A stretch of 64,000 bases of DNA from NCBI GenBank assembly GCA_963701295.1, contig OY969585.1, positions 3,488,001-3,552,000 of the forward strand, written 5' to 3'. The position numbers were made by a program, and so were the translations under genes. The notes under the pieces were generated by a model that saw only the letters and a program-made list of their open reading frames with translations, was not told the DNA's origin and ran no database searches. Shown one piece after another: positions 42,726 through 55,622 of the stretch. How positions within the stretch are numbered: position 1 is the first letter of the stretch; every line of letters starts with the position of its first letter. The stretch is from Ignavibacteriota bacterium (GTDB lineage: Bacteria; Bacteroidota; Ignavibacteria; UBA10030).

Positions 42726-43083
42726 CGTCGCTCGTAGCCTTGCTGCTCGTTAACTCTAGTATATGAAAAGTACTTTTCTGTTCCACGAAGTTATTACTTG
42801 CGATTACGCACGTCTCGTTGTGCAGAAGACAAATTACTACCCTCGCCGTTGCTCGAAAATTACTCCTGCTGATCTATACTTTGTGGAAAACAAATTTCCC
42901 CTATATCCCTGATTATAAATCTATCTAGAATACATCAGAAGGTCTTTCGTTTTAAAACATTCTTCGTTAGTTATTCTATTACGCCACAGGCGTATCAGTC
43001 TTTGGCGGAGAAATATTTTTTGCTTAGACTCTTGACATTGAACACAGTACATGGTTAGACGACAAAAAAATACTTTACGGCTA

Positions 43084-44943: not shown

Positions 44944-44977
44944 CGTTCATTCCGTCAGCTTGAGTGCCTGGTTAGGC
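44944..44977 (-). repeat. attC remnant (R''/L'' arm)
   Basis: ttcattccgtcagcttgagtgcctggttaggc; stop codon of ORF 44972..45388 lies inside R''. Confidence 0.8.
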
Positions 44978-45388
44978 AGCATTACTTTGTCCCGACGAAT
45001 ATTTCGATTCAAAATACTTTTTTTGGCATTCCTTCCAATCCATAAATCCAACCCACCCAAACATTACGACCATTGGAAGAACAACGAATACTATTGTATA
45101 TAATATTTTTGCTTCATACGACAGAAACCAAGTCAAAAGCAATGACAGAGGTAGCCCATAGAGCAGGCTAAATTTCAACGAGTAAGCAATCTGCTTATTC
45201 TTAATTCTTTCAAATTGAACGACACGTTTCTTCATGCTCTTTTCTAAAAAAAAGAATAAAGCAAACAAAAGAAATAATATTACAAATATTCCGACAACCA
45301 TCATATTTAATGGCGGTGGATTAAATATCAATCTTACCAATAGTGGAACAAAGAAAATGAATGGAATATATTTATTTTTGTTTTCCAT
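44972..45388 (-). CDS. Small 4-TM hypothetical cassette protein
   Basis: GAGGAG RBS, hydrophobic segments, TAA overlapping the attC R'' box. Confidence 0.7.
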   Translation of the reverse strand: MENKNKYIPFIFFVPLLVRLIFNPPPLNMMVVGIFVILFLLFALFFFLEKSMKKRVVQFERIKNKQIAYSLKFSLLYGLPLSLLLTWFLSYEAKILYTIVFVVLPMVVMFGWVGFMDWKECQKKYFESKYSSGQSNAA

Positions 45389-45412
45389 GTGTCTCCTCGT
45401 TTTGATAATGTT

Positions 45413-45953
45413 ACCTAACGGATGGCGGCTAAGTCCCGATTTGATCTTCGATCAAATCGAGTATCCCGTACAGCGGGACTGACGTGCTGATAACTTTTGC
45501 GCCAGAGGCGCATGTGCCTTGGGCACACAATATACACAAAACGAACAAAGTTCATTCTAAAAAGTTTATTATTAATAACCAAACCTCTGCTCGCCATGCT
45601 TGGCGTACCACACCTGCCCCGCGTTTTTGCAGGGCTCATTCCGTTAGCTTGAATATTATGACAAAGTCAAGCCGATTTCAAGAGTACCAAATTGACCGAT
45701 TTGTAATTCGGAATATAACCGACTCCGACCACACTAACGCACACACCACCAGGTGAAACGAGCTTTCTCCATTGAATAGCCTTTGCTGACGTACATACTA
45801 TCTAGCTTCTGCGACTTGAAGAGTTGGGTCTTCTTCAAGCTGTAGGCTCGATGCGCCTTGAGCCGCGTTAGACTTCTTCAACTCTTCCTTGGTGTATGAC
45901 TTGTGTACCTTCCGTTATTTATGTCTTTAGTCTAATGGAACCGCTGGTTATGT
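45413..45953 (-). repeat. attC interrupted by three insertions
   Basis: acctaacggatggcggctaag...ttccgttagcttgaa[287-bp element]ccgctggttatgt. Confidence 0.8.
45651..45940 (-). mobile_element. Non-autonomous IS110-family element (bridge RNA plus ends, no transposase)
   Basis: GAA repeated at both ends; removal restores the attC; junction promoter TTGACT-N17-TAGACT; internal guides match target and donor; residual transposase-like tail YIPNYKSVNLVLLKSA*. Confidence 0.75.
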
Positions 45954-45963
45954 TGCAATTGTT

Positions 45964-47276
45964 TCATCTAAGTAAAACAAGTTTCTTCGTTTCTGTAAAT
46001 GTTCCGGCTTGCAAACGATAAAAATAAATTCCGCTCGACATATTTGCCGCATTCCATTGTTTAGAACAATTTCCCGCTGACATTTCTTCCGAGACAAGTG
46101 TTGCAACTTCTCTTCCTAATAAATCAAATACTTTTAATGATACAAACGATTCTTTTGGAAGATCATAAGAAATAGTAGTTGTTGGATTAAATGGATTGGG
46201 ATAATTCTGACTCAGAGTAAATCTCTTTGGCTGAGAAGAAGGTTGCTTTACATTAGTCATTAAATCAGAAAGAGGCCGCCTCCACGCACCGCCACCCTCA
46301 GTTCCGACCAAGAGATCCTTGCCGCCTTTCCCATCGGGAGATACGGTGACAGTCCAGTCCCAAGGGTTCATCGAGGCCGAATGAATGTCAGTCCAATGAG
46401 CACCGTTGTCAGTAGAAAAAAAGACACCGCCACCCCATGTCCCAACAAAGATATTTGTGTCACCTGTCTCTTCGGGAGATACGGCGATTGAATTGATAAA
46501 AGTGGTTGTGAGACCGGAATTAACGGCAGTCCAATTAATGCCGTTGTTTGTGGAAAGAAAGATCCCATTATGTGTACCTGCAAAAAGATTCGTTCCACTA
46601 ACAGCAAGAGCATTTACATTGGTATTAGCTAGACCTGAGTTGACGGCAGTCCAATACGTGCCGTTATTGGTAGAAAGAAAGACTCCGCCACCCTGAGTCC
46701 CGGCAAAGATATTTGAGCTGTCCGTTCCGTTTTGGGTTACGGCCAGAGCATAGACTGTATCGTTCGTCAAACCAGAATTGACAGCAGTCCAGTGTGTCCA
46801 ACTTGACCCGTTAAAGGCTGAGCGAAATATCCCGTTGCCTTTAGTACCGACAAAGAGATTTAAGCTATCGGTCCTTCCAGGTGATGGACTCACGGCAAGT
46901 GACCAAATATCCGTGTTCGATATACCGGAATCGACTGCAGTCCAATTTGTCCATCCAGTTCCATTATAGATCGATAGAAAAACCCCATGGTGAAATGTGC
47001 CTGCAAAGAGAAGCGTGTCAGATGCTGTAAGAACAGTGGCAACAATATTCGTAGATCCAAATGGATCCCAGCGTGTTCCATTGTTAGTCGATAGAAAGGC
47101 TCCACCATCGGTTGTTGAAAAGAGATACGTGCCGCCTGCCCCGTTTGGAACGACGGCAAAAGAAAGAACAGCATAATTAGTTAACCCGGAATCAATAGCA
47201 GTCCATTGAGCAGAAGTTTCAGCCGGCAAAAAGAACAATCCACCAATGAATAAAACAGCAACGAAAAGAACTTCAT
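45964..47276 (-). CDS. Beta-propeller (BNR/YVTN-like repeat) protein with T9SS C-terminal domain
   Basis: Repeats GVFLSTNNGxxWTAVNSGL; QNYPNPFNPTTTI...KKLVLLR. True start likely ATG 47276 after GAGGA, with a 1-bp homopolymer slip; the track's extension runs into the attC. Confidence 0.85.
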
Positions 47277-47326
47277 AAGATTTTCCTCTTTTAATTGTTC
47301 TTTTTAGGTAATTAAATAAGAATGCA

Positions 47327-47512
47327 ACATAACGGACGGGCGCTAAGCTGCGGCGCTGCAAACGTTCAACATGCTGATAACGGAACAAATTCATTGTACT
47401 TATTTTCATATTAAAGCAAAATCTCTGCTTGTCATGCTAATTGTAGCGAACCTGCCCGCCATACTTTATATTTTGGCGCGCTCATTCCGTCAACTTGAGC
47501 GCCCGGTCAGGC
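47327..47512 (-). repeat. attC site (186 bp)
   Basis: acataacggacgggcgctaagctgcgg...ttccgtcaacttgagcgcccggtcaggc; stop of the upstream ORF lies in R''. Confidence 0.88.
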
Positions 47513-54249: not shown

Positions 54250-54264
54250 GGTATGTTGAGTCTG

Positions 54265-54475
54265 TGACAATTATTTTCGTATCCTAATCCATTGGCAAAG
54301 TCATAGGAGAGATAGGAGCCGCTAGATATCTTCCCAGAAGAATATCGTTAACCAGATACATCTCCCTATGACTTTCCGCTTCTCAAGAATCTGAACAGTA
54401 CTTTGAGATCCATATTTCTTTCCCGTGGAATCCCGTATAACGCACGAGTCAAGATCACAAGGAAGCTGCCAATGT
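54265..54475 (+). ncRNA. Predicted bridge RNA of the IS110 element
   Basis: Outer stem ATTGGCA/TGCCAAT; stem AAAGTCATAGG/CCTATGACTTT enclosing GAGCCGCT and TAACCAG; second loop with ACAGTAC. Confidence 0.75.
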
Positions 54476-54513
54476 ATTTCTTCTCTTAACCTCTATTTCA
54501 AGGAGCTTTTGCT

Positions 54514-55537
54514 ATGACGATCTTAAAACAAACCATCGGTATCGATGTCTCTTACAAATCCTTCGATGCCAGATTCGGTACCATCAATACTCAACAAGAA
54601 ATAAACCTATCTGCTTCAAAATCCTTCAAAAACTCACTCGCAGGATTCAAACTCTTTCTGCGATGGCTCAAGAAATATATCCTCTCCGACGATATTCCTC
54701 TGGTCTTTGTCATGGAAGCTACTGGCGTCTATTACGAACACCTCTCTCACTTCCTCTTCCAGCAGGGGTATCAAGTTGCCGTTATCCTGCCCAATAAAAT
54801 TAGAAATTATGCCAAATCTCTCGAATCCAAATCCAAAACCGATCCTCATCGATGCCGCCGTCATTACTCGATTTGGCCTTGAACGACAACTCTCACTCTG
54901 GATGCCGCCTTCAGAGACTATAAAAACTCTGCGCGATCTCTGCAGGGAATACCACTGCCTCAAAGCTAACTGCACGCAAATTAAGAATCAACTCCACGCT
55001 CTCCAATCTTCCTTCAAGCCGCACAGAGAGTCCTTCAAACGCAAAACCCAACTCCTCAAATTCCTCGAACGGCAGGTCGCGCTTATTAAAAAGGAACTTC
55101 TCGCCTTAGTCAAGACCGAGCCTGATCTTCTGGCCCAGCGTCTCAAGAAAATCAAAACAGCTAAAGGCCTCGGCGATATGACCATCCTCACCGTCCTATC
55201 TGAAACTCGCTGCTTTGAGCTTGTCTCCAATCAAAAGCAGCTTACCAGCTACGCTGGTTTCGACATCGTCTTTAACGACTCTGGCTTGAAGAAAGGAAAA
55301 ACTTCTATCTCAAAAAAGGGCAATAAGTTTATCCGTAAAGCTCTCTTTATGCCTGCCATCTCTGCCTGCCGGGCTAATCCTGATCTCAAAGAACTCTATC
55401 AACGTCTTATTGCTAAAGGCAAAAATAAAAAACTTGCCATCGTTGCTGTCGCTCGTAAATTATTACTCCTGATCTCCACGCTCTGGAAATCTAATTCTGT
55501 TTACGTCCCCACTTATAAACCGATCCAACTCGTTTAA
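54514..55537 (+). CDS. IS110 transposase/bridge recombinase; 1-bp frameshift near 54847
   Basis: IGIDVS, VMEATGVY, KTDP-IDA, DSG, ISKKGNKFIRKALFM, AVARKLL. Confidence 0.92.
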
Positions 55538-55622
55538 TACTTACGCTGTCTCTTGTTCTTTGAAATATTTTTTACTCTAACTCTTGACTTTTACCACAGT
55601 ACCTGGTTAGGCAGCAATTGTA

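Follow-up and report, generated by a model that had tools for sequence, protein, structure and literature searches.

The insert at positions 45651-45939 of the window, by which we mean the whole stretch of 64,000 nucleotides that was analysed, is in our view a one-off deletion relic of a full-length IS110-group element, and we give this reading a probability of about 0.8. Judged by its sequence, the insert derives from an IS110-group element of about 1.26 kb that has lost about 973 bp from its interior, because its ends match those of whole elements in the related genome G008. The earlier note on this DNA had described a MITE-like parasite that uses a recombinase in trans, with a one-off internal deletion as its fallback. 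It is the fallback that the data show, since the insert is present as a single copy, which the note itself had named as the mark of a relic. The parasite did not hold up, as we found one copy only, no cognate recombinase and no second two-ended mini element, and as the tail, right end and flank all show decay.

We propose that a full-length element would have inserted at the TC core of the attC site by RNA-guided recombination, that a single deletion would then have removed about 970 bases of the recombinase gene, and that the remnant would have decayed in place. The order of these events (insertion, deletion, decay) is one that we infer. By analogy with IS621, the joined ends of the parent would form a -35/-10 promoter, its RNA would pair through the first loop with the attC site and through the second with the junction of the element itself, and strands would be exchanged at TC by the recombinase. 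The remnant has no means to move alone; excision, likely poor, might occur if a close relative entered the cell.

Such a relic is an ordinary product of insertion-sequence decay, and its value is that of a pointer. Following it up brings one to a compact family of the IS110 group (345 aa, TC core) whose guides have been reprogrammed in nature, in some cases towards integron attC sites. Moreover, the insert is a natural minimal donor, in which both ends, the junction promoter motif and the predicted bridge RNA are held within 287 bases.

The insert and its parent family

The features of the insert and of the site in which it lies are given below, in window coordinates.

45651..45939, minus strand: IS110-group element with an internal deletion, 289 bp when both TC cores are counted and 287 bp when one is
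45938..45939, minus strand: left TC core, the target-left/donor-right junction; register as in relatives, with flank C before TC
45929..45937, minus strand: right donor arm CATT and -10-like TAGACT, from the sequence; near invariant in alignment A1
45651..45670, minus strand: right end with -35-like TTGACT, left donor arm ATAATAT (45659-53) and right TC core, from the sequence
45749..45752, minus strand: joint left by the deletion where the left end meets the tail of the recombinase (approximate), from the sequence; bridged by the X1 contig
45667..45749, minus strand: decayed recombinase 3' tail, last ~27 codons, with a 1-base frameshift near 45718
45818..45887, minus strand: predicted target-binding domain of the bridge RNA (outer stem, GTCT/AGAC stem, guides, hairpin), from the family alignment and covariation
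45760..45808, minus strand: predicted donor-binding domain of the bridge RNA (AGCT closing stem, guides, hairpin), from guide covariation
45940..45950, minus strand: first part of the attC site, TAAC box and target-left; arm family with more than 100 arms in the genome
45413..45650, minus strand: remainder of the attC site, with target-right AAGC-TAAC, inner palindromes and GTTAGGT; reconstructed site about 250 bp
45964..47409, minus strand: cassette gene on the upstream side, encoding 481 aa that end in a Por secretion tail (outside the element, given as context)
44972..45388, minus strand: cassette gene on the downstream side, encoding 138 aa that match no Pfam family (outside the element, given as context)

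The GAA triplets at 45651-53 and 45938-40 that had been reported to flank the insert are present in the sequence. The repeated core itself is TC and not 3 bp, as the window's extra T is replaced by C in relatives. A TC core had already been suggested, and it lies in the same register in the relatives; TC is found at both junctions in the window and in every whole relative examined. There is no target duplication and there are no terminal inverted repeats; the junction is bordered just by a GTC(A)/GAC repeat of 3-4 bases. The left end (about 190-220 bp) is far longer than the right end (about 16 bp after the stop). Both ends are kept in the insert, which has no coding capacity: the recombinase gene (DEDD RuvC-like and Tnp) is absent, and only a broken 27-codon tail is left. 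This transposase-like tail had been put at 16 codons, while it actually spans about 27 codons (45749-45667), the earlier note having seen the last 16, and is broken by the frameshift.

As the earlier note had it, TTGACT (45670-65) and TAGACT (45934-29) stand 17 bases apart over the joined ends. This promoter-like arrangement, TTGACT-N17-TAGACT, is conserved among the family members. The insert has the orientation of the cassettes, with the RNA upstream of the recombinase remnant. A search of Rfam over 45400-46000 gave one weak match below its cut-off, which corresponds to chance.

Both ends of the insert match those of whole IS110 elements in relatives, with E values from 1e-38 to 1e-12. Whole elements that share these ends are found at the same attC base in genomes of the same genus. 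An IS110 origin, with a full-length parent sharing the same ends, had been suspected, and such parents were found as the whole elements of G008, L003 among them. G008 holds two elements of 1262 bp, and the first 181 and last 67 bases of the insert match their ends with 80-84% identity; both occupy the same attC base, with a TC core, as the window insert. The open reading frame of L003 encodes a DEDD recombinase of 345 aa with the domains PF01548 and PF02371, and that of the other G008 copy is shorter (297 aa). Matches to the insert occur in 7 of 101 related genomes, its own genome counted, and in 6 of 86 in the family. Of 4,059 candidate proteins, 1,141 are related to the parent protein at E<=1e-50, and the records with the element family are mostly MAGs of Bacteroidota or Ignavibacteriota.

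The predicted bridge RNA and the TGAC target motif

On the alignment of its members and the structural model, the left end of the family takes the fold of a bridge RNA, in which the guides change together with target and donor. In the window, the outer stem is formed by GAAGAGTTG at 45887-79, which pairs with CAACTCTTC at 45826-18. The target guides lie at 45868-60 (left) and 45842-35 (right), and the donor guides at 45801-795 (left) and 45773-68 (right). The stem and all four guide sequences had been placed correctly in the earlier note, and the bridge-RNA anatomy proposed there also withstood the covariation check, in which compensatory pairs were found and the guides follow the target and donor flanks.

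For this check, 13 left ends were aligned (alignment A1), the structure was named by hand and its pairs were then counted. Over the 13 left ends, 94.5% of the cells of the hand-named structure are paired, against 88.2 after shuffling and 28-46% after sliding. Compensatory change is seen in 10 of the 24 pairs overall and in 7 of the 9 pairs of the outer stem, in counts that ignore relatedness. The closing stem of the donor loop is conserved, with compensatory change in none of its four pairs. The bridge fold rests on the family alignment, since the single sequence beats its shuffles only in the target-loop domain (z -2.6, compared with z -0.3 for the donor loop and z -0.21 for the whole strand). 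RNAalifold recovered the target domain but not the donor domain, and placed the 5' end opposite the right donor guide.

With the window and one near-duplicate left out, and among kin that are not independent, so that p-values overstate the effect, the target-right guide matches at 40 of 45 positions (24.5 when permuted) and the target-left guide at 37 of 45 (24.1 when permuted). Counted in the same way, the donor-left guide matches at 66 of 70 positions and the donor-right guide at 35 of 36, against 61.4 and 31.9 in the permutations. Donor-right and its guide change jointly in L029 and L067, donor-left and its guide in L037 and L030, and target-right and its guide in L041 and L044. The guides of the window match at 4/5 positions for target-left, 5/5 for target-right, 6/7 for donor-left and 4/4 for donor-right. 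Its left donor arm differs from its own guide at one base, a G-T wobble. A mismatch between donor and guide that would be unique to the window was considered and rejected, as the whole members L042 and L041 carry mismatches too.

In addition, we found TGAC at +5 to +8 after the core in 29 of 35 distinct right flanks, behind 16 different guide-read 4-mers; these flanks were hand-picked as true family ends (L022-L044, L067, L095-L123) and are not independent. Once L105 and L113, which have no tail evidence, are dropped, 27 of 33 flanks carry the motif. The right target guide accounts for the T of TGAC alone, and the donor has GAC at the same place. It is likely, from these sequence patterns, that a protein-read, PAM-like target motif lies behind TGAC in the parent clade. 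Our literature search yielded no report of a PAM-like motif for bridge recombinases, and the passages of one preprint that bear on the subject mention none. A palindrome common to the right target and the left end has been described for ISPpu9 in passages of PMC12288879 and is a partial precedent. The presence of TGAC at +5 to +8 whatever the guide bears on the specificity of bridge recombinases.

Copy number, decay and alternative readings

One copy of the insert was found in its own genome by BLASTN, and nhmmer, run unfiltered with profiles of the left and right ends, gave the same count. The covariance model also gave one copy there, with 150 of 848 candidates scored. The further copies in attC sites that had been looked for on the strength of the earlier note were not found in relatives or in the metagenome scans either. 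The genome contains 123 intact TCAAGCTGAC words, where about 8 are expected, and 15 perfect full-target GCGGCTCAAGCTGAC sites. A protein search with the parent, Pfam domain searches and nhmmer detected no cognate recombinase in the host genome. The 13 matches to the Tnp domain in the Pfam searches consist of 2 broken genes, which belong to the other left-end family, and 11 intact IS1111-type genes, and the genome's other IS110-superfamily proteins share 24-34% identity with the parent. The IS1111-type element is present in 9 copies that are 98.7-100% identical, together with 2 copies of a sister at about 80% identity. The spread of active elements is therefore visible in the host genome.

The wider scans used exact-match patterns on one genome per species, in which repeats often break contigs. 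In the species-wide right-end scan, a second two-ended mini was found at 0 of 22 loci: 9 of these are whole elements, 11 are truncated at the end of a contig and 2 are chance matches. All five matches of the size-specific metagenome scan, which asked for exact ends and lengths within 15 bases of the insert, were unrelated. In a looser scan of the phylum, where 31 of 401 genomes matched, no other two-ended mini was seen among the 40 of 51 matches examined, and the viral collection gave 0 right-end matches. The covariance model, run on 150 genomes, returned 11 matches in 8 genomes, of which 5 are whole elements, 5 are relics and 1 lies at a contig end. The joint between left end and tail is crossed in one of eight sequencing runs, X1, by a contig of 151 bases with 100% identity. 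It was not found in the other seven, where separate left-end or right-end pieces are present and where a gap proves nothing.

Several changes point to decay. The tail is identical to P0021 at 23 of 27 residues; its substitutions include an L at a position that is P in 102 of 104 homologues and a W where R or K is the usual residue. The differences of the tail from the parents (12 synonymous and 5 non-synonymous codons against L042) are as synonymous-rich as parent-parent differences are, which argues that most of the divergence arose in a coding ancestor and that the deletion came later. The right flank of the insert reads TAAC, in contrast to TGAC in 27 of the 33 family junctions. In the RNA, the window has two compensatory outer-stem pairs, one of them at columns that are invariant in the other 12 sequences, and the structure was therefore selected somewhere on the window lineage. 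The window RNA also shows 3 changes in 40 invariant columns, a test without power in which neutral, decayed and selected cannot be told apart. The T variant of its target-left occurs also in an intact arm.

Relics were observed in relatives as well, and every breakpoint is different. Two of them, L060:1502-1680 (G009) and L051:1502-1655 (G011), are left-end-only relics that stop exactly at a TC inside the element, to which the target-right of the attC is joined. This register with the core could reflect recombinase excision from an internal pseudo-site or a microhomology deletion. L060 has no private change. In L005 (G039), a partial left end is followed by an intact copy of the element's own non-attC target. 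L095 and L120 (G192) were considered as a mini family and rejected, as they are right-end-only relics with differing breakpoints.

The deletion relic is not free of opposing observations. We counted against it that the insert retains its two ends, the promoter motif and the four guides, that the nearest parent is unsampled and that the donor mismatch is a G-T wobble. A rival reading is a mobile, recombinase-less family in which each member has a bridge RNA of its own and depends for movement on the parent recombinase in trans, the genome holding one copy that was stranded after loss of the helper. All parts needed in cis are retained, and the private compensatory pair in the outer stem would also fit. 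According to passages of PMC11187229 and PMC11208160, mini-IS donors can move when recombinase and RNA are supplied in trans, and MITEPpu9 has been described, in passages of PMC12288879, to form circles via the ISPpu9 transposase. Nevertheless, we regard such a family as unlikely, given one copy against 123 target words and no cognate recombinase. The joint is found nowhere else in the genome or the metagenome scans, nor in 7 of the 8 runs, and the tail looks recently coding rather than long neutral. Furthermore, passages of PMC11208160 indicate that IS621 generally tolerates mismatches to the donor guide poorly. It is likewise unlikely that the insert is a natural 287-base bridge-RNA-only parasite that encodes in its RNA both its attC address and its own end and hijacks the recombinase of a relative, in a clade whose recombinase also demands a PAM-like TGAC beside the target read by the RNA. 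If the mobile reading were true, this would be a lineage in which guide-RNA-only parasites arose from IS110.

We think it very improbable that the insert is immobile but kept for a function of its own, be it that its RNA, made by read-through from the cassette array, serves as an extra guide or as a decoy for the recombinase of an incoming relative, that the right end acts as a promoter, or that the insert locks the cassette. Relics reduced to the left end, in which all or part of the bridge RNA is kept, do recur in G009, G011 and G039, but right-end-only relics (L095, L120) occur too, as plain decay predicts, and our queries were rich in left ends. The element lies on the cassette strand, L060 is without private change, and a promoter-like match of 9/12 lies over 45681-45653; such matches are at chance level, however, with 2 found and 1.6 +/- 1.4 expected. 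A test for selection after the deletion, which had no power, saw none. That the short form is an assembly error which collapsed a full-length element is scarcely credible. Two other IS110 genes in the genome are broken, possibly by sequence errors, but the 151-base X1 contig spans the joint without differences, although X1 is possibly the source sample and not independent, and no further recombinase fragment of the parent family was found in the genome.

Relation to known systems and the host integron

The deletion relic and its parent family share many traits with IS621 and the IS110 group as described in passages of PMC11208160, namely a long left end, a short right end, a dinucleotide core and the junction promoter motif. 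The likeness to IS621 extends to the two internal loops, one for the target and one for the donor: in each, the 5' side matches the left half of the DNA site and the 3' side is complementary to its right half (PMC11208160, same passages). The window insert differs from IS621 in that it has no recombinase gene, that its core is TC and that its target is an attC arm. In the parent family, unlike IS621, the core does not come after the left donor guide. Moreover, its targets carry TGAC beyond the guide, whereas the passages of PMC11208160 report no covariation signal within targets. Insert and parent family (L003, L008, L016 and relatives) are alike in ends, core and RNA structure, and the closest members share the attC base. 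What sets the insert apart is the deletion of about 973 bp relative to L003, the frameshifted tail and an RNA identity of at best 81% to the closest sampled parents.

The printed near-precedent for a recombinase-less IS110 piece, as far as passages of PMC12288879 describe it, is MITEPpu9 (ISPpu9, Pseudomonas putida), which likewise is without a recombinase and has IS110 ends and a small-RNA gene. It is present in eight copies with a resident transposase, and circles were detected, whereas the window insert is a single copy with no helper. The small RNA Ssr9 is dispensable for ISPpu9 transposition and is not described as a bridge RNA in these passages. With the IS1111-attC group, e.g. ISKpn4 (passages of PMC11187229), the insert shares a fixed insertion place in the attC sites of integron cassettes. 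In that group the guide RNA lies downstream of the gene and long subterminal repeats are present, whereas the RNA of the parent family lies upstream. The genome's own 11-copy IS1111-type element has the downstream RNA layout of the IS1111-attC group.

The insert is outside three classes: it is no autonomous IS110 element, as it has no recombinase, no MITE-like family, as there is one copy and no helper, and no IS1111-attC element, as its RNA is upstream. In the literature, including passages of 2026 preprints, no natural bridge-RNA-only element was found, and bioRxiv supplements could list some. According to passages of 10.64898/2026.08.31.748434, excision requires recognition of the donor arm, and passages of PMC13626964 state that excision is less efficient than insertion. 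By analogy, the remnant may be latently mobilisable; it bears no sign of past movement.

The host genome consists of one contig of 3.64 Mb and is 99.3% complete. It is the site of a large, dispersed chromosomal integron, in which many cassettes end in Por secretion tails. An integron integrase over the TIGR02249 cut-off is found at 3566721-3567662, about 33 kb from the insert. The attC arms, about 145 in number and all of one family, are distributed over several separate clusters, and we observed a single integron integrase. The boxes of the attC site that holds the insert lie at 45950 and 45419, between two same-strand genes. With about 250 bp, compared with 147-196 for most, this site is long and has several extra palindromes. 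Its R and L boxes pair imperfectly by eye, and in the predicted fold the right box pairs with the second TAAC.

Other elements were seen in the same integron. A second IS110-group family is found at 54253-55604 (plus strand) of the window, with a GT core, an upstream non-coding region and a frameshifted gene. The element lies in an attC TAAC box, in the opposite direction, and its joined ends again give TTGACT-N17. Another broken copy of this family lies near 254.5-255.7 kb of the genome. At about 42730-43055 (plus strand) of the window there is a remnant of the same family, with the C-terminal tail of the recombinase and the right end, the left part being missing. The IS1111-type, attC-targeting element, with its long downstream non-coding region, occurs e.g. 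at 3556350-3557720 and at ten more sites. At least three IS110-superfamily lineages in the genome use the same attC arm, at different bases.
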